Shown: one piece after another, positions 913-50,440 of the stretch | Numbering within the stretch: the stretch's first letter is position 1 | How the letters are laid out: each line of letters starts with the position of its first letter | Sequence record: NC_000866.4 | Length of the DNA: 64,000 bases | Source: Escherichia phage T4 | Strand: one strand, 5' to 3' | Made by a program: the position numbers and the translations under genes | Notes under the pieces: model-generated | Told to the model about the DNA's origin: nothing | What the model saw: only the letters and a program-made list of their open reading frames with translations | The model's database searches: none

Positions 913-938
913 ATAATCATGAGGTCCAGGTTGTTCCC

Positions 939-1415: not shown

Positions 1416-1718
1416 TTATTTATCTTTAATTGCTTTAGCTGCTTCGATAGCCGCTTGCTGAAGGTCATCCATAGACATGCCGAACTTAGAAGCAAAGTTA
1501 TCAATTTTCTTTTCGACGGCATTCAAAGGCTTGGCCTGTTTACCTTCATTAGCGCCAGGAAGAGCGAGAATACGCTCTCTGTCAATATAAAGGCTTACAA
1601 GTTTCTTACGGTCTTTATCGGGCAAATCATGAAATGAATGGGCCTTTTTATTTACAGCGGCTTCTAATTTACCTGCGCCCACTCGCGCTTCGGCAATAAA
1701 TTCTTGATATGTTTTCAT
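1416..1718 (-). CDS. ipII: internal protein II (packaged head protein)
   Basis: 100-aa ORF starting MKTYQEFIAEA (capsid targeting sequence shared with ipIII); position between denV and ipIII as in T4. Confidence 0.9.
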   Translation of the reverse strand: MKTYQEFIAEARVGAGKLEAAVNKKAHSFHDLPDKDRKKLVSLYIDRERILALPGANEGKQAKPLNAVEKKIDNFASKFGMSMDDLQQAAIEAAKAIKDK

Positions 1719-1769
1719 ATGTTTCCTTTAAATGTAAATATTTTTATTATTCTATCCTAGAATTGTGAT

Positions 1770-1799
1770 AATATATTCACAATTCTAGGAGTTGTAAAC
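1770..1799 (-). promoter_or_regulatory. early promoter upstream of ipII (-35 GTTTAC, -10 TATATT)
   Basis: minus-strand GTTTAC at 1799..1794; -10 overlaps the centre of a 14-bp perfect inverted repeat (1755..1768 / 1777..1790). Confidence 0.45.
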
Positions 1800-6857: not shown

Positions 6858-7172
6858 AACCGTTGCGGCAACCTTGTCGGGGTTCCACCTGCCAAGGCAA
6901 GTGTTTGTACGAAACGCCGGGATTCGAACCCGGTTATTAAGTAGTTGACGCTACTCAATATTTTTAAAAGGCCATATCTCAACCATATCCGAACGTTCCG
7001 TCAAAAACGCTACTCGGCTTACGGCAAAGATATTTCCTCGAATCGATAATTTGGTGCGCCGTTTCTGCTGTGATGTAAGAGGGCATCAATAAACGCAAAG
7101 ATTATTAACGCAATTCCTTACTCAGGGAACCATCAGTCCGACGACTTACCGGTAGCGACCCGGTTTCTCATT
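6858..7172 (-). ncRNA. two small stable tRNA-like RNAs (T4 species 1 / species 2 RNAs, rnaC and rnaD); internal boundary not resolved
   Basis: non-coding ~315-nt interval between tRNA-Arg and the terminator; contains a tRNA-like T-arm (CCGGG-UUCGAAU-CCCGG); matches the position of the T4 stable RNAs. Confidence 0.45.
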
Positions 7173-7247
7173 TGGTATCCCGCCCTGGGATCGAACCAGG
7201 ACCGCAAACTTAGAAGGATCGTATGCTATCCATTACACCAGCGGGAC
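7173..7247 (-). tRNA. tRNA-Arg (anticodon TCT), CCA encoded
   Basis: reverse complement reads GTCCCGC...CCTTCTAAG...GGTTCGATCC...GCGGGATACCA with a paired acceptor stem and canonical T-arm. Confidence 0.85.
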
Positions 7248-7252
7248 GTAAT

Positions 7253-7918
7253 TTAAAATTTCATTTTTCGACCTTTAAACCATCCTTCTGGAATTGGGTC
7301 AGTTTTCTTAATACGTTTAGAAACTTTTTCATCTAATGAATGAATCCACATCATACCGAATTGGGAATTCTTTTCACCTTTCTGGTGATTATTTTTGGCG
7401 TGAGATTCTTTCATTTTATTAATAGTTTCAGGAGTATGATGCTTATTTAGAAATCTGCTATTATTTAAAAATTTTTCCCTGTATTCAGGAGTTGACCACA
7501 AACGTTTAAATACATTTGAACCAATTTTACGATATTTTTCTTGAAGTAAAATATCATTTTCAAAACGTGACTTAAACGATTTAGCTCCTTTTAAGCTAGC
7601 ATCTTTCTTCTGGTTTAGCATTCCAGGAATATTTACATGATCCCATCCACCTTCACCGCCAAGTTTTAAATTATACACATCTGGTCTATTTAAAAACTCT
7701 TCTGTGACAATATTTTTCTCGGCTTCAAGCATAGATTCTTTATCGTCAAAATACTCTAATATTTCTTTAGAAAAATTTTCTATACCATATTTATCTTGGG
7801 CTCTTTTTAATAATTTACCAGAACCCATATATCCATCATCTAAATTTTCGGTAGAATGCACACCAATATAAATTTTATTATTAATTTTATTTGTTATTTT
7901 ATAAGTGTAATAGAACAT
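7253..7918 (-). CDS. segB: GIY-YIG homing endonuclease
   Basis: 221-aa ORF with GIY-YIG motif (KIYIGVHSTENLDDGYMGSG); inserted between tRNA-Ile and tRNA-Arg as in T4. Confidence 0.85.
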   Translation of the reverse strand: MFYYTYKITNKINNKIYIGVHSTENLDDGYMGSGKLLKRAQDKYGIENFSKEILEYFDDKESMLEAEKNIVTEEFLNRPDVYNLKLGGEGGWDHVNIPGMLNQKKDASLKGAKSFKSRFENDILLQEKYRKIGSNVFKRLWSTPEYREKFLNNSRFLNKHHTPETINKMKESHAKNNHQKGEKNSQFGMMWIHSLDEKVSKRIKKTDPIPEGWFKGRKMKF

Positions 7919-7959
7919 AAATATCTCCTATTTCTAAGAGTATTTATGTTCTCAAAATA

Positions 7960-8033
7960 TGACCCAGACCAGATTTGAACTGGTAACCTTTCCCTTATGA
8001 GGGGACTGCTGCTAACCATTGAGCTACAGGGCC
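7960..8033 (-). tRNA. tRNA-Ile (anticodon CAT; would score as Met by anticodon alone)
   Basis: reverse complement GGCCCTGTAGCTCAATGG...CTCATAA...GGTTACCAGTTCAAATCTGGT; last tRNA of the 7-gene subcluster, the position of T4 tRNA-Ile. Confidence 0.8.
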
Positions 8034-8034
8034 T

Positions 8035-8110
8035 TGGTGCTGATTGACGGAATCGAACCGCCGACATCCTCATTACAAGTGAGGTGCTCTACCTACTGAG
8101 CTAAATCAGC
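8035..8110 (-). tRNA. tRNA-Thr (anticodon TGT), CCA encoded
   Basis: reverse complement GCTGATTTAGCTCAGTAGGTAGAGCACCTCACTTGTAATGAGG...GGTTCGATTCC...AATCAGCACCA; fully paired acceptor stem. Confidence 0.9.
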
Positions 8111-9951: not shown

Positions 9952-10648
<697 letters not shown>

Positions 10649-10649
<1 letters not shown>

Positions 10650-11374
10650 TATAGTACCTTTAGTGTATTTTTAATTTTAGAAAAAAGTTCTTCAAGAGAA
10701 CCATCGTTTGTAATTACTAAATCGCCATCACGAATTGGCAATCCAGCTTCTGTAATATGTGTATCATTGGATTTTTGACCAGGACGAACTACATGAATTA
10801 CTGTAGCACCCATCGCCCTAGCCGCATCCATTTCATGATCTTGACGGGTATCAGGAACGATATAATAATCATAACCTGAGTTAAATTTATCAAGATAATC
10901 TAAAGCAAATAATTTTACCCAGTACATGCGGTCGAAGTTATTAACAATCAAATCCGTACCTAGGGCTTGCATCAGACGACGGACTGACCATTGATCTTCA
11001 ATATTATTTATAACGTCAGTAATCTTATTAAATGCTACGAAATTAACTGATTCTTTTCCTTCGTCATCAAAAACAAACACACCTTTAATTGGGCTTTTAC
11101 CATTAAGATAACAAAATGCTTGTTCCATAATCGTGATTACTTCTAATTTAGTCAGATTTAAATTAGTCTCACGATCATAGTCAATTCCTTCAAACTCTTT
11201 ACGAGTTAAGCAAGGATAGTCAGTGTTTGCTGCAAATACTCCCCATGCATAAGCCAATGCATCCTTAATAGGACCAGCAAGTTGGTATTTAACTGCAGAA
11301 TAATTGCTCATGATAAAATCAGCAGTAGTATCTTTTCCACTACGCTTTACACCGCTTAAAAAGATTAGTTTCAT
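10649..11374 (-). CDS. 1: deoxynucleoside monophosphate kinase
   Basis: 241 aa from the ATG at 11374 (SD GAGGAG); P-loop GVKRSGKDT; the track ORF extends 13 codons further upstream. Confidence 0.9.
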
Positions 11375-11954: not shown

Positions 11955-12060
11955 ATATTCCTCATAATGCTTTATAACTGTTGGTGGTATAATGGGTCTA
12001 AGTCCCTTCCATTCAATTCCATTTAGAACAAACAACAGAAAAGAATGGAAGATAATAGAA

Positions 12061-12885
12061 TTAGATATTTGACCAGACTTTGTTTGCAGAGAAACGTTTT
12101 CCTTTTGAAACGAACTGCTGAAGTGGCATCAACACAACGTTCGCCCAGTCTTTCGGGGCGATTTCAACAAGGCTACCCATAATATTACCAGGTATATATG
12201 CCTTAATCATTTGGTCTGCACCCCTAAATCCTTTCACTTGACTCCAATCAATTTTTAATTTCGTTTTATTAGTAATAGTAGGTGTATTTGCATATTGCTT
12301 TAAAAGCTCTTCTAGGAATTGCTGACGAGCTTTAGGTGGAATATAGTGCAAGTTTAATCCGTACATTAAATTATGCTTACCTAAACCAAGGTAAATTATC
12401 AAAGGAAATTTATCCCAGTAAGGAAGAGTTTCCTTGTGTTTAGCATCATAAGCAAAAGCATATATTCGTCCCGGCTGCGGGCGAACAACTTTATGTCCTT
12501 TTACTTGCTTAATAGTTTCAGCAAACCACTTTCTGGTTTTATTATTAATTGCTGCGCCTTCATTACGAATTTTATCACGCAATGTTTGTCTGAATGAATT
12601 TATCATAAGCAGTTGTCTTTCTTGCTTATTGAGTTTATTCATTGGTTTTGATTCAAGTTTTTGAATCTTTTCAGCCGTTTTAATTCCTGAAGCATATTTT
12701 GACATTGCTGAAGTAAACGTAGAGTATTTGATTCCTCTTTCTTCAGCAAATTGCTTTCCTGTCATTCCTTTTGCTTTGGCCTTTTTATATTCAAGACCTA
12801 TCTGAATCCATTTCTTTTCGTTTAATGATTGCTTAACCTTTGGAACTTGGGGAGTGCTTTCATTAATTATTTGAAAAATAGCCAT
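12061..12885 (-). CDS. 2: DNA end-protector protein gp2
   Basis: 274-aa basic ORF, length and position as T4 gp2. Confidence 0.85.
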
Positions 12886-13337
12886 TATGCCCCCTTAAAG
12901 CCAAGAGCTCGTAATCCATCTTCTGTTAGAATTCTAAATTTTATTCCACGCTTTTCAGCTAAAGATTGTGCTGCTTTCCATTTGTCAGTGTTCACAGACC
13001 AGGTATAAATTTCATTCATAAATCTTTTCTTCGCTGCGGTCGTTAGATGTGCTGGTTTAACTGGTGGTTGTGTTTCTTTTTTAGGTTTTATTTCAATAAA
13101 AAATTCTTGTCCAGAAGAATCTTTCATCCAAATATCCATGAAGTATCTACGTTTTTTCCCTTCTGCATTACAAAAATAAGGAATTACTGCTGTTTCACTA
13201 CCCCATGCAATAATTTCTGGATTTTTATCTAACCATTCAAAAAAGAATTTTTCCCAATTTGATCTATACGTAATTTTTTTAGGGTCACCTCTATACTTTG
13301 ATATATTTTTAGGAACCCATTTTCCAGAATATGCCAT
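12885..13337 (-). CDS. 4: head completion protein gp4
   Basis: 150-aa ORF directly downstream of a minus-strand late promoter. Confidence 0.85.
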
Positions 13338-13348
13338 TGGATTCTCCT

Positions 13349-13356
13349 TATAAATA
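13349..13356 (+). promoter_or_regulatory. late promoter TATAAATA for gene 53
   Basis: exact TATAAATA 29 nt upstream of the gene 53 start codon. Confidence 0.65.
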
Positions 13357-13363
13357 GATAATA

Positions 13364-13371
13364 TATTTATA
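13364..13371 (-). promoter_or_regulatory. late promoter TATAAATA for gene 4 (divergent from the gene 53 promoter)
   Basis: plus-strand TATTTATA = minus-strand TATAAATA, 27 nt upstream of the gene 4 ATG. Confidence 0.65.
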
Positions 13372-13384
13372 AACAGGAGGGCCC

Positions 13385-13975
13385 ATGCTCTTTACATTTT
13401 TTGATCCGATTGAATATGCGGCCAAAACGGTGAATAAAAACGCGCCGACTATTCCTATGACAGATATTTTTAGAAACTATAAAGACTATTTTAAACGCGC
13501 TCTTGCGGGATACCGCTTACGTACTTATTATATTAAAGGTTCACCACGCCCGGAAGAATTAGCAAATGCTATATATGGAAATCCACAGCTGTATTGGGTT
13601 TTATTGATGTGTAATGATAATTATGACCCGTATTATGGATGGATTACTTCGCAAGAAGCTGCTTATCAAGCATCTATACAAAAATACAAAAACGTAGGTG
13701 GAGACCAAATAGTATATCATGTGAATGAGAACGGTGAAAAATTTTATAATTTAATATCATACGATGATAATCCATATGTTTGGTATGATAAAGGCGATAA
13801 AGCTAGAAAATATCCTCAATATGAAGGAGCGCTTGCTGCGGTCGATACGTATGAAGCTGCTGTTCTTGAAAATGAAAAACTTCGTCAAATAAAAATAATA
13901 GCAAAATCAGACATCAATTCATTTATGAACGACCTTATACGTATAATGGAGAAATCTTATGGAAATGATAAGTAA
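13385..13975 (+). CDS. 53: baseplate wedge protein gp53
   Basis: 196-aa ORF at the start of the late baseplate block. Confidence 0.85.
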   Translation: MLFTFFDPIEYAAKTVNKNAPTIPMTDIFRNYKDYFKRALAGYRLRTYYIKGSPRPEELANAIYGNPQLYWVLLMCNDNYDPYYGWITSQEAAYQASIQKYKNVGGDQIVYHVNENGEKFYNLISYDDNPYVWYDKGDKARKYPQYEGALAAVDTYEAAVLENEKLRQIKIIAKSDINSFMNDLIRIMEKSYGNDK

Positions 13976-15686
13976 TAACCTTAATTGGTTTGTCGGTGTT
14001 GTTGAAGATAGAATGGACCCATTAAAATTAGGTCGTGTTCGTGTTCGTGTGGTTGGTCTGCATCCACCTCAAAGAGCACAAGGTGATGTAATGGGTATTC
14101 CAACTGAAAAATTACCATGGATGTCAGTTATTCAACCTATAACTTCTGCAGCAATGTCTGGAATTGGAGGTTCTGTTACTGGACCAGTAGAAGGAACTAG
14201 AGTTTATGGTCATTTTTTAGACAAATGGAAAACTAATGGAATTGTCCTTGGCACGTATGGTGGAATAGTTCGCGAAAAACCGAATAGACTTGAAGGATTT
14301 TCTGACCCAACTGGGCAGTATCCTAGACGTTTAGGAAATGATACTAACGTACTAAACCAAGGTGGAGAAGTAGGATATGATTCGTCTTCTAACGTTATCC
14401 AAGATAGTAACTTAGACACCGCAATAAATCCCGATGATAGACCGCTATCAGAGATTCCGACCGATGATAATCCAAATATGTCAATGGCTGAAATGCTTCG
14501 CCGTGATGAAGGATTAAGATTAAAAGTTTATTGGGATACCGAAGGATATCCGACAATTGGTATTGGTCATCTTATCATGAAGCAGCCAGTTCGTGATATG
14601 GCTCAAATTAATAAAGTTTTATCAAAACAAGTTGGTCGTGAAATTACAGGAAATCCAGGTTCTATTACAATGGAAGAGGCGACGACTTTATTTGAGCGTG
14701 ATTTGGCTGATATGCAACGGGACATTAAATCACATTCTAAAGTAGGACCAGTCTGGCAAGCTGTCAACCGTTCTCGTCAAATGGCGTTAGAAAATATGGC
14801 ATTTCAGATGGGTGTTGGTGGTGTAGCTAAATTTAACACAATGTTAACTGCTATGTTAGCAGGAGATTGGGAAAAAGCGTATAAAGCCGGTCGTGATTCA
14901 TTGTGGTATCAACAAACAAAAGGCCGTGCATCCCGTGTTACCATGATTATTCTTACGGGGAATTTGGAATCATATGGTGTTGAAGTGAAAACCCCAGCTA
15001 GGTCTCTATCAGCAATGGCTGCTACTGTAGCTAAATCTTCTGACCCTGCTGACCCTCCTATTCCAAATGACTCGAGAATTTTATTCAAAGAACCAGTTTC
15101 TTCATATAAAGGTGAATATCCTTATGTGCATACAATGGAAACTGAAAGCGGACATATTCAGGAATTTGATGATACCCCTGGGCAAGAACGATATAGATTA
15201 GTTCATCCAACTGGAACTTATGAAGAAGTATCACCATCAGGAAGAAGAACAAGAAAAACTGTTGATAATTTGTATGATATAACCAATGCTGATGGTAATT
15301 TTTTGGTAGCCGGTGATAAAAAGACTAACGTCGGTGGTTCAGAAATTTATTATAACATGGATAATCGTTTACATCAAATCGATGGAAGCAATACAATATT
15401 TGTACGTGGAGACGAAACGAAAACTGTTGAAGGTAATGGAACTATCCTAGTTAAAGGTAATGTTACTATTATAGTTGAAGGTAATGCTGACATTACAGTT
15501 AAAGGAGATGCTACCACTTTAGTTGAAGGAAATCAAACTAACACAGTAAATGGAAATCTTTCTTGGAAAGTTGCCGGGACAGTTGATTGGGATGTCGGTG
15601 GTGATTGGACAGAAAAAATGGCATCTATGAGTTCTATTTCATCTGGTCAATACACAATTGATGGATCGAGGATTGACATTGGCTAA
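13959..15686 (+). CDS. 5: baseplate central spike with lysozyme domain, gp5
   Basis: 575-aa ORF; internal lysozyme domain (EMLRRDEGLRLKVYWDTEGYPTIGIGHLI) paralogous to e; C-terminal VxGxxxxx beta-helix repeats. Confidence 0.95.
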   Translation: MEMISNNLNWFVGVVEDRMDPLKLGRVRVRVVGLHPPQRAQGDVMGIPTEKLPWMSVIQPITSAAMSGIGGSVTGPVEGTRVYGHFLDKWKTNGIVLGTYGGIVREKPNRLEGFSDPTGQYPRRLGNDTNVLNQGGEVGYDSSSNVIQDSNLDTAINPDDRPLSEIPTDDNPNMSMAEMLRRDEGLRLKVYWDTEGYPTIGIGHLIMKQPVRDMAQINKVLSKQVGREITGNPGSITMEEATTLFERDLADMQRDIKSHSKVGPVWQAVNRSRQMALENMAFQMGVGGVAKFNTMLTAMLAGDWEKAYKAGRDSLWYQQTKGRASRVTMIILTGNLESYGVEVKTPARSLSAMAATVAKSSDPADPPIPNDSRILFKEPVSSYKGEYPYVHTMETESGHIQEFDDTPGQERYRLVHPTGTYEEVSPSGRRTRKTVDNLYDITNADGNFLVAGDKKTNVGGSEIYYNMDNRLHQIDGSNTIFVRGDETKTVEGNGTILVKGNVTIIVEGNADITVKGDATTLVEGNQTNTVNGNLSWKVAGTVDWDVGGDWTEKMASMSSISSGQYTIDGSRIDIG

Positions 15687-15720
15687 TATACTTCCAATGA
15701 GCGCTGATTTAGGAGAATCC

Positions 15721-16215
15721 ATGGAAGGTTCTTCTATCGACGTCACCTTTACCGCTCAATTAGAAACAGGTGAAACGTTAGTATCTATAAATATAACTAG
15801 TTACGAAGAAACTCCTGGGGTTTTAGTAGAAGAAAATCGCTTATATGGAACATATGAATCTGTATTTGGTTTCGGAAATGACGCGTTGAAATATCGTTTA
15901 GGCGATGAATTTAAAACTGCTGCTTCATGGGAAGAACTTCCTACTGATTCTGATACTCAGTTGTATTTGTGGAAAGCTCCTCAAAACCTCCAGAAGACAT
16001 TCACTTACGAAGTAACATTAATATATGACTACCAAGAACAAAGTGAATCTGGGGGTTCTGGCAGTAATTCTAGGTCATCTTCTGATACTACTGAACCGAC
16101 AGATCCTCCTGCTCCAGTAAGAAAAACTCTAGTTAAAAATTATACTAAAACTATAGTTGGAAATTGGAGTCGTTGGGCTAATAAACTGAGAAAATATGCC
16201 TATGCAAGACCATAA
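15721..16215 (+). CDS. hypothetical protein (T4 5.1 position)
   Basis: start chosen at the ATG at 15721 preceded by SD AGGAG; the track ORF (15658, TTG) overlaps the gene 5 end. Confidence 0.55.
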   Translation: MEGSSIDVTFTAQLETGETLVSINITSYEETPGVLVEENRLYGTYESVFGFGNDALKYRLGDEFKTAASWEELPTDSDTQLYLWKAPQNLQKTFTYEVTLIYDYQEQSESGGSGSNSRSSSDTTEPTDPPAPVRKTLVKNYTKTIVGNWSRWANKLRKYAYARP

Positions 16216-16618
16216 ATATTTTTATTTGTATTCAATAACTAATAAAACAACAGAAAAAATTTATGTAGGCGTCCACAAAACTTCAAATTTGGATGATGGG
16301 TATATGGGTTCTGGCGTTGCCATTAAAAATGCCATTAAAAAATATGGCATAGATAATTTTTATAAGCATATTATAAAATTCTTTGAATCTGAAAAAGCTA
16401 TGTATGACGCAGAGGCAGAAATAGTCACAGAGGAATTTGTTAAATCTAAGAAAACTTATAATATGAAACTAGGCGGTATCGGTGGCTTCCCAAAACATAA
16501 CACAGCGGGTGCTAAAAATGGATTTTACGGTAAATCTCATTCGCGTGAAACTAGATTGAAAATTAGCATTAAATCGTCTAGAAAAAGAGGGCCTAGAGGG
16601 CTAGAGGTAAAACTCTGA
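16196..16618 (+). CDS. segC: GIY-YIG homing endonuclease, catalytic N-terminal part
   Basis: 140-aa ORF with GIY-YIG motif (KIYVGVHKTSNLDDGYMGSG) and linker GKSHSRETRLKIS; ends at a TGA after which the homologous sequence continues in another frame. Confidence 0.7.
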   Translation: MPMQDHKYFYLYSITNKTTEKIYVGVHKTSNLDDGYMGSGVAIKNAIKKYGIDNFYKHIIKFFESEKAMYDAEAEIVTEEFVKSKKTYNMKLGGIGGFPKHNTAGAKNGFYGKSHSRETRLKISIKSSRKRGPRGLEVKL

Positions 16619-16620
16619 AG

Positions 16621-16791
16621 ATGTGTGGCGCCAATAACCCAAGGTATGGCAAAATAGCCCCTAATGCTAAATCTGTTATTATCAACGGCGTTTTATATAA
16701 AAGTATTAAAATCGCAGCTAAAGCTCTTAATATAAATTATAGTACCTTAAAGGGGCGAGTTAAAGCGGGGTATTATAAATGTCAGGATTAA
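16621..16791 (+). CDS. small ORF resembling the C-terminal DNA-binding region of a GIY-YIG endonuclease (T4 5.3 position)
   Basis: 56-aa [59 protein letters not shown] in frame 1, starting 3 nt after the stop of the GIY-YIG ORF (frame 2). Confidence 0.4.
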
Positions 16792-17072
16792 GTTATGATA
16801 AGTGTGTTACTGCTGGCCATGAAGCGTGGCCTCCAACAGTTGTGAATGCTACACAAAGTAAAGTATTCACTGGAGGAATTGCTGTTCTCGTAGCAGGCGA
16901 TCCAATTACAGAACATACAGAAATTAAAAAGCCGTATGAAACACATGGCGGAGTGACACAACCTAGAACTTCTAAGGTATATGTCACTGGAAAGAAAGCT
17001 GTTCAAATGGCTGATCCAATATCATGCGGTGATACTGTGGCTCAGGCATCATCTAAAGTATTCATTAAATAG
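16779..17072 (+). CDS. 5.4: PAAR-repeat spike-tip protein gp5.4
   Basis: 97-aa ORF, length and position as T4 gp5.4. Confidence 0.85.
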
Positions 17073-17080
17073 GATTTAAA

Positions 17081-19063
17081 ATGGCAAATACCCCTGTAAA
17101 TTATCAATTAACAAGAACAGCAAATGCTATTCCCGAGATATTCGTCGGGGGTACATTTGCTGAAATAAAACAAAACCTCATTGAATGGCTTAATGGCCAA
17201 AATGAATTTTTGGATTATGATTTTGAAGGCTCAAGATTAAACGTTCTGTGTGACCTTTTAGCTTATAATACATTATACATTCAGCAGTTTGGTAATGCTG
17301 CTGTGTATGAAAGCTTTATGCGTACTGCTAACTTACGAAGTTCAGTTGTTCAAGCTGCACAAGATAACGGATATTTACCTACTTCAAAATCCGCTGCGCA
17401 GACCGAAATTATGTTAACATGCACTGACGCATTGAATAGGAATTACATTACTATTCCTCGCGGAACTCGCTTTTTAGCATATGCAAAAGATACTTCTGTT
17501 AATCCATATAACTTCGTTTCTAGGGAAGACGTTATTGCTATTCGTGATAAAAATAACCAATATTTTCCGCGTTTAAAATTGGCCCAGGGACGTATAGTAA
17601 GAACTGAAATCATTTATGATAAATTAACACCTATTATCATTTATGATAAAAATATTGATAGAAACCAGGTTAAATTATACGTTGATGGAGCGGAATGGAT
17701 TAACTGGACGAGAAAGTCAATGGTTCATGCTGGTTCAACATCAACGATTTACTATATGCGTGAAACTATTGATGGAAACACTGAATTCTATTTTGGTGAA
17801 GGTGAAATTTCTGTTAATGCTTCTGAAGGAGCTTTGACCGCTAATTATATCGGAGGTCTTAAACCTACTCAGAACTCTACGATTGTTATTGAGTACATTA
17901 GTACTAATGGTGCTGACGCGAACGGAGCAGTCGGATTTTCATACGCAGATACATTAACAAATATAACTGTCATCAATATTAATGAAAATCCAAACGATGA
18001 TCCAGATTTTGTTGGGGCAGATGGAGGCGGTGATCCAGAAGATATTGAGCGTATTCGCGAATTGGGTACTATTAAACGCGAAACCCAACAACGATGCGTA
18101 ACTGCGACTGACTATGATACATTCGTTTCAGAGAGATTTGGTTCTATTATTCAAGCTGTTCAGACTTTCACTGATTCTACTAAACCTGGGTATGCATTTA
18201 TTGCTGCTAAACCTAAATCAGGATTGTATTTAACTACCGTACAGCGTGAAGATATTAAAAATTATCTCAAAGACTATAATTTAGCTCCTATTACGCCATC
18301 AATTATTTCTCCTAATTATCTTTTTATTAAGACTAATTTAAAAGTCACATATGCTTTAAATAAACTGCAAGAATCCGAACAGTGGCTTGAAGGTCAAATA
18401 ATTGATAAAATAGATCGCTATTATACCGAAGATGTAGAAATTTTTAACTCGTCTTTCGCTAAATCTAAGATGTTGACATATGTAGATGATGCAGATCATT
18501 CTGTCATTGGTTCATCAGCGACTATTCAAATGGTTCGTGAAGTACAAAACTTCTATAAAACGCCTGAAGCGGGTATTAAATACAATAATCAAATAAAAGA
18601 TCGTTCTATGGAATCTAATACGTTTTCATTTAATTCTGGACGAAAGGTTGTAAATCCTGATACTGGTTTAGAAGAAGATGTATTATATGACGTTCGTATA
18701 GTATCAACAGACCGAGATTCTAAAGGAATTGGTAAAGTTATTATTGGTCCATTTGCTTCTGGCGATGTTACAGAAAATGAAAACATTCAGCCGTATACAG
18801 GCAACGATTTTAACAAATTAGCAAATTCTGATGGACGCGACAAATACTATGTTATCGGTGAAATAAATTATCCAGCTGATGTGATTTATTGGAATATCGC
18901 TAAAATTAATTTAACATCTGAAAAATTTGAAGTTCAGACCATTGAATTATATTCTGACCCAACCGATGATGTTATCTTTACTCGCGATGGTTCACTGATT
19001 GTATTTGAAAATGACTTACGTCCACAATACTTAACTATCGATTTGGAGCCTATATCACAATGA
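17081..19063 (+). CDS. 6: baseplate wedge protein gp6
   Basis: 660-aa ORF, length and order as T4. Confidence 0.9.
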   Translation: MANTPVNYQLTRTANAIPEIFVGGTFAEIKQNLIEWLNGQNEFLDYDFEGSRLNVLCDLLAYNTLYIQQFGNAAVYESFMRTANLRSSVVQAAQDNGYLPTSKSAAQTEIMLTCTDALNRNYITIPRGTRFLAYAKDTSVNPYNFVSREDVIAIRDKNNQYFPRLKLAQGRIVRTEIIYDKLTPIIIYDKNIDRNQVKLYVDGAEWINWTRKSMVHAGSTSTIYYMRETIDGNTEFYFGEGEISVNASEGALTANYIGGLKPTQNSTIVIEYISTNGADANGAVGFSYADTLTNITVININENPNDDPDFVGADGGGDPEDIERIRELGTIKRETQQRCVTATDYDTFVSERFGSIIQAVQTFTDSTKPGYAFIAAKPKSGLYLTTVQREDIKNYLKDYNLAPITPSIISPNYLFIKTNLKVTYALNKLQESEQWLEGQIIDKIDRYYTEDVEIFNSSFAKSKMLTYVDDADHSVIGSSATIQMVREVQNFYKTPEAGIKYNNQIKDRSMESNTFSFNSGRKVVNPDTGLEEDVLYDVRIVSTDRDSKGIGKVIIGPFASGDVTENENIQPYTGNDFNKLANSDGRDKYYVIGEINYPADVIYWNIAKINLTSEKFEVQTIELYSDPTDDVIFTRDGSLIVFENDLRPQYLTIDLEPISQ

Positions 19064-42510: not shown

Positions 42511-42536
42511 TCTCTAACGATAGAAACACAATTTTA

Positions 42537-42560
42537 GGGAACCTTCGGGTTCCCTTTTTT
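42537..42560 (+). terminator. rho-independent terminator after gene 23
   Basis: GGGAACCTTCGGGTTCCC perfect hairpin followed by TTTTTT. Confidence 0.75.
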
Positions 42561-43235
42561 CTATTTTATACGATAGCAATCAGGCATATCATCCGCATTT
42601 ATCCAATTGCGAATAGTTTTAGGACTAACTTTAAAATGCTCCGCTGCGTAATCAGGATTATCAAATTTAACGCCCTTTATACATATTGGAATAAATTTTT
42701 TAATACCACCAAGTTTTTCAGAAATAGCTTTACGATGTGAAATCGATATAGGTTTGTTTTTTCGTGGATGAACATGTGTTTTATAATATTCATTGCGCCC
42801 TTTAACTCGCTTCGCAATAGTTTCATCAGATTGCTTAACGCCTGTTTTTGCCTTTGATATTTTTCGTTTAGCTTCCACAGTCATTCCTTCTTTTGTTCGT
42901 ATTGATAACATATTACGATATGAAGGATCTTGCAAATGAACTATAACTGGATTTCCTCTGCCACCAATAGCAGCATTATAGGTATCAGTTCTCATAACGA
43001 ATTCCTCATTAACTAGTAAAGCTTCCATTTTATACATCTCCTCAGATGAGGAGAAAGAATAAAGAATTTCTTTTTTAAAGTTATGAATACCATATTTTTT
43101 GATGGATTTTTTGATGTTTACGCCAGAACCCATATAACCATCGTTTTCGTCAAGAGTAGCATGAGCTCCGATGTAAATTTTTCCATTGATGATATTAGTA
43201 ATTTGATATATTAAATATTTCATTTTAAACATCAC
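42561..43235 (-). CDS. segD: GIY-YIG homing endonuclease
   Basis: 224-aa ORF with GIY-YIG motif (KIYIGAHATLDENDGYMGSG) between genes 23 and 24. Confidence 0.8.
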   Translation of the reverse strand: MMFKMKYLIYQITNIINGKIYIGAHATLDENDGYMGSGVNIKKSIKKYGIHNFKKEILYSFSSSEEMYKMEALLVNEEFVMRTDTYNAAIGGRGNPVIVHLQDPSYRNMLSIRTKEGMTVEAKRKISKAKTGVKQSDETIAKRVKGRNEYYKTHVHPRKNKPISISHRKAISEKLGGIKKFIPICIKGVKFDNPDYAAEHFKVSPKTIRNWINADDMPDCYRIK

Positions 43236-43287
43236 TCCGTTTGTATATGATTATAATATCATATTACTTTGGTCTTGTAAATAACTT

Positions 43288-43295
43288 TATAAATA
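43288..43295 (+). promoter_or_regulatory. late promoter TATAAATA for gene 24
   Basis: exact TATAAATA 28 nt upstream of the gene 24 ATG. Confidence 0.65.
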
Positions 43296-43322
43296 GTATT
43301 ATATTTCAACAAGGAAAATACA

Positions 43323-44606
43323 ATGGCTAAAATCAACGAACTTCTGCGCGAATCAACCACAACGAATAGCAACTCAATCGGTCGCCCAAATCTCGTTGCT
43401 TTGACTCGCGCTACCACTAAATTAATATATTCTGACATTGTAGCAACGCAAAGAACTAATCAACCTGTTGCTGCTTTTTATGGTATCAAATACCTTAACC
43501 CAGACAACGAATTTACATTTAAAACTGGTGCTACTTACGCTGGCGAAGCTGGATATGTAGACCGAGAACAAATCACAGAATTAACAGAAGAGTCTAAATT
43601 AACTCTCAATAAAGGCGATTTATTCAAATATAATAATATCGTTTATAAAGTATTAGAAGATACTCCATTTGCTACTATCGAAGAAAGTGATTTAGAATTA
43701 GCTCTTCAGATTGCAATCGTTCTTTTAAAGGTTCGTCTATTTTCTGACGCAGCGTCAACAAGCAAATTTGAAAGCTCTGATAGTGAAATTGCGGATGCTA
43801 GATTCCAGATTAATAAATGGCAAACTGCAGTTAAATCTCGTAAACTTAAAACTGGCATCACAGTTGAATTAGCGCAAGATTTAGAAGCAAATGGATTCGA
43901 TGCTCCTAATTTCTTGGAAGATTTGCTTGCAACTGAAATGGCAGATGAAATCAATAAAGACATTCTGCAGTCTTTGATTACAGTGTCAAAACGCTATAAA
44001 GTTACAGGAATTACTGATAGTGGATTCATCGATTTGAGTTATGCATCTGCTCCTGAAGCTGGTCGTTCATTATACCGAATGGTATGTGAAATGGTTTCGC
44101 ATATCCAAAAAGAATCAACTTATACAGCAACGTTCTGTGTTGCTTCAGCTCGTGCCGCTGCGATTCTTGCTGCATCAGGCTGGTTAAAACATAAACCAGA
44201 AGATGACAAATATCTTTCACAAAATGCCTACGGGTTCTTAGCTAATGGTTTACCGCTTTATTGCGATACTAACAGCCCATTAGATTATGTAATCGTTGGC
44301 GTAGTAGAAAATATCGGTGAAAAAGAAATTGTTGGATCAATTTTCTATGCTCCGTATACAGAAGGTCTCGACTTAGATGACCCTGAACATGTAGGTGCAT
44401 TTAAAGTTGTTGTTGATCCAGAAAGCTTACAACCATCTATCGGTTTATTAGTTAGATATGCTTTATCAGCAAATCCTTATACTGTAGCAAAAGATGAAAA
44501 AGAAGCAAGAATAATTGACGGTGGAGACATGGATAAAATGGCAGGTCGTTCAGATTTGTCTGTTTTATTAGGTGTTAAGCTACCAAAAATTATCATTGAT
44601 GAATAA
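43323..44606 (+). CDS. 24: capsid vertex protein gp24
   Basis: 427-aa ORF, paralogous in architecture to gp23. Confidence 0.9.
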   Translation: MAKINELLRESTTTNSNSIGRPNLVALTRATTKLIYSDIVATQRTNQPVAAFYGIKYLNPDNEFTFKTGATYAGEAGYVDREQITELTEESKLTLNKGDLFKYNNIVYKVLEDTPFATIEESDLELALQIAIVLLKVRLFSDAASTSKFESSDSEIADARFQINKWQTAVKSRKLKTGITVELAQDLEANGFDAPNFLEDLLATEMADEINKDILQSLITVSKRYKVTGITDSGFIDLSYASAPEAGRSLYRMVCEMVSHIQKESTYTATFCVASARAAAILAASGWLKHKPEDDKYLSQNAYGFLANGLPLYCDTNSPLDYVIVGVVENIGEKEIVGSIFYAPYTEGLDLDDPEHVGAFKVVVDPESLQPSIGLLVRYALSANPYTVAKDEKEARIIDGGDMDKMAGRSDLSVLLGVKLPKIIIDE

Positions 44607-44613
44607 AACAAAG

Positions 44614-44634
44614 GGACCTTTCGGTCCCTTTTTA
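44614..44634. terminator. terminator hairpin between convergent genes 24 and rnlB
   Basis: GGGACCTTTCGGTCCC followed by TTTTT on the plus strand; the same hairpin lies just past the rnlB stop on the minus strand. Confidence 0.7.
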
Positions 44635-44635
44635 T

Positions 44636-45640
44636 TTAACTTACCAACTCAATCCAAGCTGGACGAAGTACATCTTGTACCATTTTAACTAATTCCTTTT
44701 TAATCAAAGAAGGATTATCTGCTTGAGTTAGAGTAATACCTTCACGAGAAGTTTCTTCCAAAATATCTTGAACAGTTAGCCCCATCACCTTTCCAAAATC
44801 CTTTGGACCAATTTCGCCAATTTTAGAAATAACGTTATTTACGCGGTTCAGTGTAACGTAACAAGCTAAAATTCCCACCAATTTGTTATCAGCTTCTGAT
44901 AGCTCAACTTTAGCTTTAATAGGCTTATCAGACTTTTTCTTTTCACTAAATTTAGAGTTCTTGCATTTAATCGCTACACGATTTCCATTACGAAGCCAAG
45001 AAGGATAACAAGGTTTCAATACATATCCTTCAGCAGTAAATACTTCGCCTTTTGCTTCGGCATTCCAAACGCATTTATTTGCATCAACTAATCCAGCATG
45101 GTCTACTGTAAAATTATAATCTTGGACGACAGAATCTAAATCATTTGGCAATTTAATAAGCTCTTCAAATTTACCGCGACCTAAAAGTGGAGCCATTTTA
45201 AATTTAAATGTATTACAGAATGATTCCATCATATAATCATCTACATAAGTCACATCACCGCTTTCTGTAGTAACAATAATGTCAAATACATAAAAATCTT
45301 TATCACAATAATCAACATTCTTCTGAATGCCAGGTCCAGCGAATTCGCCAAAGACTTGATAAGATACAACCGCTGAGGTTTCCATAATATCTTGTACAGC
45401 TTTAATGGAATCAGCATAATTCTTCAAAATAATTTCATACCCAAAGAAATCTTCAGCAGGAAGAATCGGTCCAGTGCGTTTAGCGCAAGTCACTTTATCA
45501 CGCTCAATAATCAATGAGAAATTTGTGCCGTGAATCTTTTCACGAGCTACCCACTCCCCACCAGTCAATCCCAAGCTATAAAGTTTTTCAATAAATTTAG
45601 AGTTGTAATGATTTTCAAGACTGCTATACTTTTTAAACAT
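44636..45640 (-). CDS. rnlB: RNA ligase 2
   Basis: 334-aa ORF with nucleotidyltransferase motif I KIHGTN. Confidence 0.85.
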
Positions 45641-45649
45641 AATTAATCC

Positions 45650-45928
45650 TCAAAATGTAATTTCTAACCAATCACCATCACGCTGATCACTATTGACTTT
45701 AAAGCTGAATCCTTCTTTTCTCAGCCAATCACCAATTTCTTCTGTAATCAATTTATCACGAGCAATACAATAATAATTAAAATGTGTTTTACCTTGTTCA
45801 GCTGCTTTATTAGCAAGTTCTGAAAAATCTTTAATAAAACACTCTAGCTTAAACTGTTTACTTTTTAATGCTTTTTCGCGTAATTGATTAGCAAAAGATT
45901 CATTTTCATAAAGATCATACTGTTCCAT
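45650..45928 (-). CDS. hypothetical protein (T4 24.2 position)
   Basis: 92-aa ORF. Confidence 0.55.
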   Translation of the reverse strand: MEQYDLYENESFANQLREKALKSKQFKLECFIKDFSELANKAAEQGKTHFNYYCIARDKLITEEIGDWLRKEGFSFKVNSDQRDGDWLEITF

Positions 45929-46097
45929 TTTTCACCTTTTTATTGATATGTCTTTTTCTATAGACAACTTTTTCTCGAGCCCATAATACAGCCACTTCTT
46001 TTGCCTGTAAGTTTAATTCACGAGCAATTTCAATGAATGACTTTCCAGACTCATGAAGAGTAAACACCACAACCTCAGTTCTCATAATCAATCTCAT
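45915..46097 (-). CDS. hypothetical small protein with helix-turn-helix-like segment (T4 24.3 position)
   Basis: 60-aa ORF; SGKSFIEIARELNLQAKEV resembles an HTH. Confidence 0.45.
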   Translation of the reverse strand: MRLIMRTEVVVFTLHESGKSFIEIARELNLQAKEVAVLWAREKVVYRKRHINKKVKNGTV

Positions 46098-46165
46098 GTT
46101 ATCGAGTTGGTGCCATTATATACATCATTTTCTGATTGTGTTTTGTGTGCTTTCAAAATGAAGAA

Positions 46166-46181
46166 AGGGGCCGAAGCCCCT
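46166..46181 (-). other. GC-rich UUCG-tetraloop hairpin after hoc
   Basis: AGGGGC-CGAA-GCCCCT (plus strand); identical to the element at 5291..5306. Confidence 0.5.
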
Positions 46182-46186
46182 TATGA

Positions 46187-47317
46187 TTATGGATAGGTAT
46201 AGATGATACCAGTTTCTAAAGCAGTTTTATGAATGATGTATCCATTACGCGATTCTTGGACATCAACTTCTGGATAGTCTTTCATCATCTTCTGGAGAGT
46301 GTAACGATGCAGGTAATATTTACTATCTGGGTCGTCAGTTTTCCAATCTTTACCTTCTTCGGTCATTTTTTGGATTTCATCCATAACCCACCAACCGCAC
46401 CAGATGTAAGCTGAGCTACGGTGTGGAAGAGGATGAACATAAGGTAATTCACCTTCTGGTTCTGGAGCAACTTTAGCCGTGACTGTTACATTACCAGTTT
46501 TGGTAACGGTTACAGGGTTATAATCTGCAGCAGTAACAGTTGCAGTAACTTCAATAGTTTGACTTCCAACAGATGAGGTATCGACAGTATATACGTTAGT
46601 TGACCCTTCTACAGGAGAAGAATCTTTCTTCCATGAGTAAGTAATTTGTGCTTCTTCTGGAGCACCCGTAACATTAGCCGTAAATGTAGCCGAAGCATCT
46701 TGCTGAACATTAATAGAAGGAGGAGTCAATGTAACCTGTGGATTCATTGTCTTCTTATTAACCGTTAATGATACTTCATTAGAAGTAACGCTTAGTGCAT
46801 CATAATCTGTCGCGGTTACTTGGGCTACGCATTTAATTCTTTTTACTCCACTTGTAGTTGGAGTATAGCTAAATGTAGAGTTAGTTTCTCCACCAACTTG
46901 TGAATCATCTACATACCACTGATACGTAGCAGATGCTCCATCAGGTTGAGAAGCTAAGGCAGCAGTAAATTGAACTGGGGTTCCAATCACTCCAGCCGCA
47001 GGACTAGCAGGAGTTACGGCTAAGGTAGTCGTCTGTGTCTTATTTTTAACTGTGATAGTTGTTGTCGCTTCAGCCGTTTCCGGGCCTCCTTCAGAAAGTG
47101 TATTTGTTGCAACTACTTTAATAGTCTTTTGACCGGCAGGTCCTTTTAGTACATAACTAAAAGTTGCTTCAGCTCCATCTTGTGGAACATTATCTACGCT
47201 CCAAGCATATGTAATAGTTCCGCCTCCAGTTTGACCACTGGGTGTAGCAGTAAACTGCTTAGTTTCATCAATAACCCCTGTAGGTGTTTTAGGAGTTATA
47301 TCAACTGTAAAAGTCAT
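46187..47317 (-). CDS. hoc: highly immunogenic outer capsid protein
   Basis: 376-aa ORF with three tandem ~90-aa Ig-like repeats (each containing FTA...TYxW...G) and a distinct C-terminal domain. Confidence 0.85.
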   Translation of the reverse strand: MTFTVDITPKTPTGVIDETKQFTATPSGQTGGGTITYAWSVDNVPQDGAEATFSYVLKGPAGQKTIKVVATNTLSEGGPETAEATTTITVKNKTQTTTLAVTPASPAAGVIGTPVQFTAALASQPDGASATYQWYVDDSQVGGETNSTFSYTPTTSGVKRIKCVAQVTATDYDALSVTSNEVSLTVNKKTMNPQVTLTPPSINVQQDASATFTANVTGAPEEAQITYSWKKDSSPVEGSTNVYTVDTSSVGSQTIEVTATVTAADYNPVTVTKTGNVTVTAKVAPEPEGELPYVHPLPHRSSAYIWCGWWVMDEIQKMTEEGKDWKTDDPDSKYYLHRYTLQKMMKDYPEVDVQESRNGYIIHKTALETGIIYTYP

Positions 47318-47326
47318 AAGTTATCC

Positions 47327-48007
47327 TTATTTTAATGTTACGAAAGAAGAGTTGCGTGTTTCACGAATTAAAACTGATCCATCGCGATTAATGTAATAAA
47401 TTAAGCTAAATAAAGTTTGGTGTGCTGACGCATGTTCAAAACTAGTTGGGTGAGATTTCCAATCAGGAGTTTCAGCAATCCATTGATAAATCCACCAAGG
47501 AACAGTACAGAATCCTAGATTTTTTCCAATCAGTTGAAGATTCGGACTAAAGTTTTCCGGAAGAGTAAATACAGACGGCTTTTCAGATTCAATAATCTCA
47601 GCTACAGCCTGTTCGAATTTTTCTTCAACAAAAGGAGTATCTTCAATCAAAACATCGGTATTTTCAGGAATTTTATCCGTTTCTACTACTTCAATTTTAA
47701 TGTCAGATTTAATCGGAGAATCAATCAGAAGTGCTGCTTCTGGATTGACTTCTTCATCGTCATATTTTAATCCCTCTGCGGCATCAGCAGCATCAATTAA
47801 GTCTTTAATAGATAACCCATCAGTCTCTGGCATAGGTTCACTAGCGAGCTTCTGGAGGGCTTCTTCAATATCAACAACGATATTATCAAAAGATTTATTC
47901 TTTTTGACCTTTATACCAAACTGTTCAGCATATTCAGCTAATTTAGCTTTAGCTTCTTTGTTATCATCAAGAGCCTTCAGCTCTGCAATATAATCTTTAT
48001 CTATCAT
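47327..48007 (-). CDS. inh: inhibitor of prohead protease
   Basis: 226-aa acidic ORF between hoc and segE; assignment by position and length. Confidence 0.7.
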   Translation of the reverse strand: MIDKDYIAELKALDDNKEAKAKLAEYAEQFGIKVKKNKSFDNIVVDIEEALQKLASEPMPETDGLSIKDLIDAADAAEGLKYDDEEVNPEAALLIDSPIKSDIKIEVVETDKIPENTDVLIEDTPFVEEKFEQAVAEIIESEKPSVFTLPENFSPNLQLIGKNLGFCTVPWWIYQWIAETPDWKSHPTSFEHASAHQTLFSLIYYINRDGSVLIRETRNSSFVTLK

Positions 48008-48020
48008 AATATTTCCTCAG

Positions 48021-48028
48021 TATAAATA
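48021..48028 (+). promoter_or_regulatory. late promoter TATAAATA upstream of segE
   Basis: exact TATAAATA 29 nt upstream of the segE ATG. Confidence 0.5.
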
Positions 48029-48056
48029 TAGATATATTTATTACTCGGAAAATAGT

Positions 48057-48674
48057 ATGTACCACTTTGTATATGAAACAACAAATCTAATAAATGGTAA
48101 AAAGTATATAGGAAAGCACTCTACTGATGACTTGAATGATGGTTACCTTGGTTCCGGTAAGGCAATTCAGCAGGCTATAAAGAAATATGGTGAAAACAAT
48201 TTCTCTAGAACAATACTAAAAGAGTTTAAAACTTCCGAAGAAGCGTACATGTATGAAGAAGAAATTATAACTCCTGAACTAATAAAAAGCAAAAATTATT
48301 ATAATATGAAACCTGGTGGAATTGGTGGAATTGTTATGACTACAGATGTTATAGCAAAGATGAAAGAATCTTCCGCTAAAAGATTTGAAAACTCACCGGG
48401 CACGGTATTAGGTAAAACTTGTTATACTAATGGAACTAAAAATATTTTTATTAAACCTGGAGAACTTGTTCCAGAAGGATTTGTAAAAGGGATGGTTCAT
48501 CCTAATAGAAAGTCCAGAAAAGGATGTAAAGTCAAACCGACTACCACAGGAACTTTTTGGGTCAATAATGGCGCAATAAATAAATTAATACAACCAGACG
48601 GTATTATTCCCGACGGATTTATTAAAGGTCGTCTCATGAAAAGAGATTCTAAAGGCAAATTTAGTAAGGCATAA
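48057..48674 (+). CDS. segE: GIY-YIG homing endonuclease
   Basis: 205-aa ORF with GIY-YIG motif (KKYIGKHSTDDLNDGYLGSG). Confidence 0.85.
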   Translation: MYHFVYETTNLINGKKYIGKHSTDDLNDGYLGSGKAIQQAIKKYGENNFSRTILKEFKTSEEAYMYEEEIITPELIKSKNYYNMKPGGIGGIVMTTDVIAKMKESSAKRFENSPGTVLGKTCYTNGTKNIFIKPGELVPEGFVKGMVHPNRKSRKGCKVKPTTTGTFWVNNGAINKLIQPDGIIPDGFIKGRLMKRDSKGKFSKA

Positions 48675-48676
48675 TT

Positions 48677-50440
48677 ATGGATATTAAAGTACATTTTCAC
48701 GACTTCAGTCATGTACGCATCGATTGTGAAGAGAGCACGTTCCACGAATTAAGAGATTTCTTTTCGTTTGAGGCCGATGGATATAGATTTAATCCTCGCT
48801 TCAGATATGGCAACTGGGATGGACGAATCCGTCTTTTAGATTATAATCGTCTTCTTCCATTCGGCTTAGTCGGGCAAATTAAAAAATTCTGTGATAATTT
48901 TGGCTATAAAGCCTGGATTGACCCACAAATTAACGAAAAAGAAGAATTATCAAGAAAAGATTTTGATGAATGGCTTTCTAAATTAGAAATCTATTCAGGA
49001 AATAAAAGAATTGAACCGCACTGGTATCAAAAAGATGCAGTGTTCGAAGGATTAGTTAATCGTCGTAGAATTCTTAATCTTCCAACATCTGCAGGTAAAT
49101 CTTTAATTCAAGCTTTGCTTGCGCGATATTATTTGGAAAATTATGAAGGTAAAATTCTTATCATTGTTCCAACAACTGCTCTGACAACTCAGATGGCTGA
49201 TGACTTCGTCGACTATCGTTTATTCAGCCATGCAATGATAAAGAAAATTGGTGGCGGAGCATCAAAAGATGATAAATATAAAAATGATGCACCAGTCGTT
49301 GTTGGTACATGGCAAACTGTAGTAAAACAACCGAAAGAATGGTTCTCACAGTTTGGAATGATGATGAATGATGAATGCCATCTTGCTACAGGAAAAAGTA
49401 TTTCATCTATCATATCAGGTTTAAATAACTGCATGTTCAAATTCGGTTTGTCTGGTTCATTACGTGATGGCAAAGCCAATATCATGCAGTATGTTGGAAT
49501 GTTTGGTGAAATATTTAAACCAGTAACGACTTCTAAATTAATGGAAGATGGACAAGTAACTGAGCTAAAAATTAATAGTATTTTTCTTCGCTATCCCGAT
49601 GAGTTCACTACTAAATTAAAGGGAAAAACTTACCAAGAAGAAATAAAAATTATTACTGGGCTTAGTAAAAGAAATAAATGGATCGCTAAATTAGCTATTA
49701 AGCTTGCGCAAAAAGATGAAAACGCTTTTGTCATGTTTAAACATGTATCGCATGGTAAAGCTATTTTCGATTTAATTAAAAATGAATACGATAAAGTTTA
49801 TTACGTATCAGGGGAAGTTGATACCGAAACCCGCAATATAATGAAAACCTTAGCTGAAAATGGTAAAGGAATAATTATAGTAGCTAGTTATGGTGTATTT
49901 TCTACTGGTATTTCAGTTAAAAATCTGCATCACGTTGTTTTAGCGCACGGTGTTAAATCAAAAATCATTGTATTACAAACAATCGGTCGTGTATTACGTA
50001 AGCATGGTTCTAAGACAATAGCAACAGTCTGGGACCTCATAGATAGCGCAGGCGTCAAGCCAAAATCTGCTAATACGAAAAAGAAATATGTTCATTTGAA
50101 CTATCTTTTAAAACACGGCATTGATCGTATTCAGCGCTACGCAGATGAAAAATTTAATTACGTAATGAAAACAGTTAATTTAATAAGCTTCGGCCCTTTG
50201 GAGAAAAAGATGTTACTAGAATTTAAACAATTTCTTTATGAAGCTTCTATTGATGAATTTATGGGTAAAATTGCCTCTTGTCAAACATTAGAAGGTTTAG
50301 AAGAACTTGAAGCTTATTATAAGAAAAGAGTCAAAGAAACTGAATTAAAAGATACTGATGACATCTCTGTGAGAGATGCTTTGGCAGGAAAAAGAGCTGA
50401 ATTAGAAGATTCAGACGATGAAGTAGAAGAAAGCTTTTAA
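48677..50440 (+). CDS. uvsW: SF2 DNA helicase (recombination and repair)
   Basis: 587-aa ORF; Walker A PTSAGKS, DExH box DECH; continuous through the region once annotated as a separate small downstream ORF. Confidence 0.9.
   Translation: MDIKVHFHDFSHVRIDCEESTFHELRDFFSFEADGYRFNPRFRYGNWDGRIRLLDYNRLLPFGLVGQIKKFCDNFGYKAWIDPQINEKEELSRKDFDEWLSKLEIYSGNKRIEPHWYQKDAVFEGLVNRRRILNLPTSAGKSLIQALLARYYLENYEGKILIIVPTTALTTQMADDFVDYRLFSHAMIKKIGGGASKDDKYKNDAPVVVGTWQTVVKQPKEWFSQFGMMMNDECHLATGKSISSIISGLNNCMFKFGLSGSLRDGKANIMQYVGMFGEIFKPVTTSKLMEDGQVTELKINSIFLRYPDEFTTKLKGKTYQEEIKIITGLSKRNKWIAKLAIKLAQKDENAFVMFKHVSHGKAIFDLIKNEYDKVYYVSGEVDTETRNIMKTLAENGKGIIIVASYGVFSTGISVKNLHHVVLAHGVKSKIIVLQTIGRVLRKHGSKTIATVWDLIDSAGVKPKSANTKKKYVHLNYLLKHGIDRIQRYADEKFNYVMKTVNLISFGPLEKKMLLEFKQFLYEASIDEFMGKIASCQTLEGLEELEAYYKKRVKETELKDTDDISVRDALAGKRAELEDSDDEVEESF

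Follow-up and report, generated by a model that had tools for sequence, protein, structure and literature searches.

The 64,000-nucleotide (nt) window analysed here, a stretch of the reference genome of Escherichia phage T4 (NC_000866.4) that starts at gene vs.7, carries four free-standing genes whose products are homing endonucleases from the GIY-YIG family. We are about 95% confident that these open reading frames (ORFs) are the known T4 genes segB, segC, segD and segE. The seg genes have borne this name since 1992 and have been studied both biochemically and genetically, and they are a model for selfish nucleases that make phage genomes mosaic and exclude the markers of competitors; the finding is textbook T4 biology, already known, and only small annotation points are new. 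In nucleotide comparison, pieces of 12 and 24 kilobases (kb) from the window matched more than 10 independent T4 records at 99.9% identity, and the deposited T4 Seg proteins come from the same genes as those described here; by exact protein match, the 140-amino-acid SegC of the window is NP_049761.1 (AAD42656.1) and its 587-amino-acid UvsW is NP_049796.1.

The first of the four, segB, lies on the minus strand at 7253..7918 and encodes a GIY-YIG homing endonuclease of 221 amino acids, recognized as an ORF, by Pfam, by PHROG and in the annotation of the T4T record, which was our annotation yardstick for the window at homologous positions. On the plus strand, the N-terminal part of segC (16196..16618) encodes 140 amino acids in this record, which make up the GIY-YIG domain and a linker of the NUMOD3 type; the whole segC span, made up of this N-terminal ORF and of gene 5.3, is 16196..16791. 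segD is on the minus strand at 42561..43232, with 223 amino acids from the annotated ATG and a frame that is open from a GTG at 43235. segE (48057..48674, plus strand; 205 amino acids) is located between inh, on the minus strand, and uvsW, on the plus strand. An earlier note, made from the letters of this DNA, had placed four GIY-YIG genes at these positions; ORFs with Pfam and PHROG matches were found at each of them, the one of segC covering the N-terminal 140 amino acids only.

All four proteins matched phrog_314 ('homing endonuclease'), with E-values from 3e-43, for segE, to 5e-57 (5e-52 for segB). Pfam matches were judged against the curated cut-offs, which are 22.6 bits for PF01541 (GIY-YIG), 25 bits for PF19835 (SegE_GIY-YIG) and 27 bits for I-TevI_DNA-bd: SegB passed the first (28.3 bits), and SegC, SegD and SegE passed the second (27.9, 27.5 and 36.5 bits, respectively). 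At an E-value of at most 0.001 the Seg family counts 4182 proteins. Under the names segB, segC, segD and segE, all four are labelled in T4T as GIY-YIG homing endonucleases, at positions homologous to those here; this annotation and the family matches agree with the gene names, the family and the free-standing, intergenic placement put forward in the earlier note. A motif search gave the same set of genes. In a six-frame translation of the window, with 30 shuffles as a control, DGY[LM]GSG occurred exactly four times, once per seg gene, and in none of the shuffles. With the looser pattern GIY-x(9-12)-Y[IV]G, the same four genes and one spurious match came up. No fifth seg copy was found by this six-frame motif search of the 64 kb.

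The SegA, SegF and SegG proteins of T4, as well as Seg-like genes of T4-like phages, belong to the same family (phrog_314; PF19835). SegA, SegF and SegG share a lifestyle of intronless homing and marker exclusion (PMC2988022), and differ from the four described here in that they occupy other junctions, outside the window, and have other target sites. The T4 Mob proteins are likewise the products of free-standing mobile endonuclease genes between conserved T4 genes (PMC2988022); however, they are HNH enzymes with an unrelated catalytic fold, and none is encoded in the window.

Catalytic domain and C-terminal modules

In each Seg protein, about 95 N-terminal amino acids form a catalytic domain related to that of I-TevI, and a linker joins this domain to a C-terminal DNA-binding module. 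I-TevI is the GIY-YIG homing endonuclease encoded by a T4 group I intron, whereas the seg genes are free-standing. The GIY motif of the Seg proteins occupies residues 4-6 and reads YTY in SegB, YLY in SegC, LIY in SegD and FVY in SegE, and the Y-[IV]-G motif (residues 17-19) is found exactly 10 residues past it in all four. A profile built from the four N-termini reached the I-TevI catalytic structures 1mk0 and 1ln0 (E 8.5e-4) and aligned Seg residues 4-6 with G4-I5-Y6 and residues 17-19 with Y17-V18-G19 of I-TevI. The identity in the catalytic domain is only 22-23%. By sequence, it took this profile to reach the I-TevI structures; a single-sequence search of the Protein Data Bank (PDB) with SegE returned nothing beyond chance matches.

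This alignment does not bear out the motif assignment of the earlier note, which took KIY[IV]G for the GIY motif and DGYMGSG for the YIG motif. KIYIG holds the YIG motif, consistent with the catalytically dead Y17A/G19A mutant of SegB (PMC13096335), and DGYMGSG is a Seg-specific loop. The spacing of 10 residues given there was also wrong: 12 residues separate 'KIY' from 'GYMG', because neither is the true GIY or YIG motif. As typed, the regular expression of the note has no match (0), since it is one residue short in the stretch from T to DGY and since the segE sequence is KKYIG instead of KIYIG; once the spacing is corrected and K[IK]Y is admitted, all four genes are picked up. A reading of Seg proteins based on motifs easily mislabels GIY and YIG.

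Sequence similarity among the four proteins, as seen in their alignment, extends over about 95 N-terminal residues and not over the roughly 45 that had been proposed, and over the first 100 amino acids SegC, SegD and SegE are 43-55% identical to SegB. Conservation was further scored over 49 family members, the four from the window and 45 database relatives, with residues numbered as in SegD. Y9, the last residue of the GIY motif, Y20 and G22, the Tyr and Gly of the YIG motif, and E70 and N86, the catalytic Glu and Asn, are invariant in all 49, and the family-specific D-G-Y-x-G-S-G loop is nearly so. A GIY motif, a YIG motif, an Arg in the centre of the domain and a Glu on its C-terminal side define the GIY-YIG superfamily (PMC1564403), and a review adds an Asn to the catalytic set (PMC2988022). 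GIY, YIG, Glu75 and Asn90 of I-TevI all have Seg equivalents: the Seg Glu falls within one residue of E75, and the Y-N of the Seg proteins aligns with Y89-N90. For the canonical central Arg, no conserved column was found in the 49-member alignment. In the profile alignment, the segment of about nine residues that contains Arg27 in I-TevI stands as an insertion against the Seg sequences.

The three-dimensional fold was compared for SegD alone. In the AlphaFold model of SegD, residues 1-90 reach a predicted local distance difference test (pLDDT) score of 95 or more, and strands 2 and 3 have just one helix between them, with the DGYxGSG loop placed before the helix. Foldseek ranked the I-TevI catalytic domain (1mk0/1ln0) at the top for this model, with a probability of 1.00 and a target-normalized template modelling (TM) score of 0.65.

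The earlier note had also stated that the C-terminal halves differ, and so they do, falling into two types. SegC and SegD are of the helix-turn-helix type and share with I-TevI the order of an N-terminal GIY-YIG nuclease, a NUMOD3-type linker and a C-terminal helix-turn-helix (PDB 1mk0, 1ln0 and 1i3j). In SegC, Pfam recognizes a repeat of the NUMOD3 type and, in the shifted '5.3' frame, an I-TevI_DNA-bd domain; in SegD, Foldseek matched the C-terminal helix-turn-helix to the DNA-binding domain of I-TevI (1i3j) with a probability of 0.98. A direct similarity between the C-terminal parts of SegC and SegD by BLASTP was rejected (E 1.5), both still being of the helix-turn-helix type by Pfam or by structure. 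SegB and SegE differ from I-TevI in having another C-terminal module, which they have in common: it is 38 amino acids long, carries IP[ED]G[WF]xKGRxMK at its end (E 3e-5) and is assumed to bind DNA. No recognizable helix-turn-helix was found in SegB or SegE, and no Pfam family on their common module. By eye, SegE (48357..48674) has two copies of P[ED]G[FW][IV]KG (…LVPEGFVKG… and …IIPDGFIKGRLMK), and SegB has one.

Junctions, expression signals and homing

The distribution of the four genes was assessed with each gene and its flanks as the query, counting as present those records that covered at least 80%, out of all matching records. On this count segB is present in 112 of 872 records, segC in 34 of 658, segD in 51 of 960 and segE in 157 of 723; among close relatives, taken as the approximately 500-730 matching records per query of flanks and gene, each seg gene occurs in only about 7-30%, with segD at about 10%. 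T2 lacks all four, its sites being empty and the junctions clean, and T6 carries segD and segE. This synteny comparison supports the proposal of the earlier note that the seg sites are variable spots of the genome, each gene being confined to a minority of relatives.

segB lies between the genes for tRNA-Arg (7173..7247) and tRNA-Ile (7960..8033; Met(cat) according to ARAGORN). In T2, a block of 1.2 kb with different tRNA genes and different ORFs takes the place of the region corresponding to 7169..8094 of the window, a replacement that fits the published description (PMC2330249). An RNA hairpin at 7912..7952, on the minus strand, pairs both the Shine-Dalgarno sequence AGGAG (7929..7925) and the AUG (7918) of segB; it folds with -19.4 kcal/mol (z = -6.5), none of 200 shuffles was equally stable, and its 5' arm contains the late-promoter-like CATAAATA. 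A review lists segB among the endonuclease genes with such a promoter/hairpin arrangement (PMC2988022). At the 5.1/5.4 junction, blastn boundaries delimit an insert at 16218..16774 (plus strand) that is specific to T4 as compared with T2: positions 15400..16217 of the window correspond to 11964..12780 of the T2 locus, and 16775..17600 to 12775..13600. The segC insert is seamless: the end of 5.1, which segC overlaps by 20 base pairs (bp), holds the start codon of the gene, and the start of 5.4 holds the stop codon. A separate promoter for segC was not found, either in a search of the window for late promoters or in the review (PMC2988022).

segE is preceded by the T4 late promoter consensus TATAAATA at 48021..48028 (plus strand), 29 nt upstream of its ATG. 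T2 is identical through TATAAATA up to position 48044 of the window, 13 nt before the segE ATG, and there the promoter directly precedes uvsW, which follows inh by 50 nt; therefore, the promoter is ancestral to the site and was not brought by segE. On the inh side of segE, T4 and T2 are 100% identical over about 300 nt. In contrast, the 5'-end of uvsW (48677..48853, plus strand) has diverged strongly between T4, with segE, and T2, without it: in 60-nt windows the identity is 77%, 73% and 88% over about 170 nt, against 93-100%, mostly 98-100%, in the next 1 kb.

segD is located between genes 23 and 24 and is antisense to both. On the segD strand no TATAAATA was found upstream of the gene, and a σ70-like match immediately before it, TTTACA-17-TATTAT (43281..43253, minus strand), was discounted, as 17 such matches occur in the region against 24 expected. 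A terminator-like, GC-rich hairpin with a T-run (42536..42555, plus strand) follows gene 23 and adjoins the segD stop codon; a similar hairpin follows gene 23 in T2, despite the absence of segD from that phage. Three starts are available to segD: the GTG at 43235, the annotated ATG at 43232, 2 nt past a GGAG, and an ATG at 43223, 11 nt past the same GGAG. The SegD homologue of Mosigvirus starts at the residue that matches 43223 (MNYLIY, as compared with MKYLIY in T4), and, to judge from the sequence, the true segD start may be 43223. In the 23/24 gap of Mosigvirus we also observed an antisense ORF of about 89 amino acids, with or without an adjacent segD-like gene (869..1138 in one Mosigvirus locus and 1532..1798 in another). 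The earlier note had described the seg genes as often lying on the opposite strand or having their own promoter; of this, the opposite strand stands for segD, though for segD only, and the promoter stands neither for segC, which has none, nor for segE, whose promoter is ancestral.

The mechanism that would explain these junctions is intronless homing. When a relative without the seg gene infects the same cell, the enzyme would cut the DNA of the relative near the empty site, and recombinational repair would then transfer the seg gene, along with the T4 markers beside it, to the broken genome by copying. Intronless homing would thus lead to a patchy distribution among T-even phages and would keep T2 markers out. 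SegB cleaves DNA site-specifically and is inherited at a frequency close to 100% in T4 x T2L crosses (PMC2330249), and activity has been demonstrated for SegB, SegC and SegE (review table, PMC2988022). The target of SegE is uvsW (same table, PMC2988022), and the divergence of the 5'-end of uvsW is the footprint that would be expected from differences in the SegE target site together with co-conversion.

Several points weigh against this reading. The mechanism is taken from the literature and rests on published work; the stretch from YIG to the catalytic Glu is devoid of Arg in SegC and SegD; and in this record segC is a nuclease domain without a DNA-binding domain. In addition, the flanks of segD are 100% identical in T4 and T2 for 200-300 nt on each side, and therefore the homing mechanism may not apply to segD today. 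The SegD site is reportedly identical in phages with and without segD, according to Sokolov et al.

It seems to us unlikely that segD, possibly together with segB, owes its retention to a role other than homing, either in the recombination or amplification of useful loci or in competition with co-infecting phages, even if a number of observations fit such a role. Between T4, which has segD, and T2, which does not, the flanks show no target-site divergence. Moreover, a 58%-identical segD is found in Mosigvirus in the same 23/24 gap and in the same antisense orientation, so that segD-like genes keep both site and orientation across two genera; the review gives no promoter for the antisense segD (PMC2988022), and the title of the SegD paper by Sokolov et al. 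(cited in PMC10448857) points the same way. For segB, recent work shows that the enzyme can also amplify anti-defence genes, driving their segmental amplification in T6 (PMC13096335). However, segD occurs in only about 10% of close relatives, as would a selfish element that can be dispensed with and not a useful gene, and homing endonuclease genes remain the reading that we prefer for all four.

Active-site arginine and the split segC

The earlier note had named the loss of the conserved Arg and Glu from all copies as the mark of inactive relics. We found the Glu to be invariant, and by that mark the genes are not relics, even though the family shows no conserved Arg. The absence of the canonical Arg is a peculiarity of the Seg family and not a sign of decay, because published work shows Seg enzymes to be active. 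The conserved basic residues of the family are H24, K46 and K/R54, and it is conceivable, if rather doubtful, that the Seg branch has a variant active site in which these residues take the part of Arg27 and the D-G-Y-x-G-S-G loop takes the place of the helix that bears it in I-TevI; an Arg-less active site of this kind may already stand in older alignments.

As compared with T4T, the window is short of one C at about position 16601 (16600..16602, plus strand, in the alignment), inside the tandem GGGCCTAGA-GGGCCTAGA, a GC-rich repeat of 9 bp at which the undeleted segC reads GGGCCTAGAGGGCCTAGAGG. The deletion of this nucleotide splits segC into ORFs of 140 and 56 amino acids. The second, 'gene 5.3' (16621..16791, plus strand), encodes the helix-turn-helix DNA-binding domain of SegC out of frame (I-TevI_DNA-bd, E 3.7e-6, 27.2 bits). 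segC is a single, intact gene of 597 nt in T4T and in the T4 genome resequenced in 2020 (MT984581), and it is intact in the other T4 and T4-like records, this record alone having the deletion and hence segC (140 amino acids) plus 5.3. None of the 35 other records with the segment, more than 10 independent T4 records among them, shares the deletion, all of them spanning 72 nt against the 71 nt of the query; the 198-amino-acid SegC is found on 199 contigs, as opposed to one for the 140-amino-acid form, and is also the form given by UniProt (SEGC_BPT4). The review locates segC between 5.1 and 5.3 (PMC2988022). A programmed frameshift in segC was rejected, as all other records are plainly in frame, and a literature search found no published note on a segC frameshift.

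Most likely, the split reflects a mistake in base calling in the old reference and not a biological pseudogene, because none of the 35 records shares the deletion, because the site is a GC-rich repeat and because another private difference of this record, the one at the uvsW stop, is likewise situated in a GC hairpin, while a further one, in 24.3, is a gap of 33 bp; alternatively, the split may be a private mutation of the sequenced stock. The T4 reference record thus carries a probable error, by which segC is broken in two and gene 5.3, a spurious gene, arises. It is very improbable that some or all of the copies are inactive relics, with segC a true pseudogene in the sequenced stock, cut before its DNA-binding domain: the split, the lack of a conserved catalytic Arg and the lack of toxicity of a C-terminally truncated SegB (PMC13096335), by which a truncated SegC would probably be inert, agree with it, but the Glu, the Asn and both Tyr are invariant in the four proteins and across the 49 members, three of the ORFs are full length, activity has been published for SegB, SegC and SegE, and the deletion is absent from all the other records.

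Other differences of the reference record

At the end of uvsW (50182..50186) the window reads a single ORF of 587 amino acids where T4T and T2 have TTATAAGGGCTTCGGCCCTT. In these two records TTATAAGGGCTTCGGCCCTT comprises a stop codon and a GC hairpin that is perfect and has TTCG as its loop, followed by a ribosome-binding site and the start codon ATG of uvsW.1, and it is the 5' arm of the hairpin at the uvsW stop (ATAAGC) that is changed in the window. In the UvsW protein cluster, most of the relatives listed have 503 amino acids. T6 (locus 10216..10908) has an extra annotated homing endonuclease gene exactly between uvsW and uvsW.1, and because of this gene the uvsW/uvsW.1 junction is another insertion hot spot.

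In gene 24.3, at position 45973, the window lacks 33 bp (CTCGAGTTTCAAATTTATTCTTAGCAGTCATAG) that are present in T4T. The longer 24.3 is found in every T4 record listed, and T2 and T6 annotate a 24.3 of 204 nt, as does T4T; the 60-amino-acid 24.3 ORF of the window had no match in a collection of 15 billion proteins. Finally, the window is longer than T4T by about 10 nt upstream of position 6600 and by 1 nt at about 7130, in rnaD.

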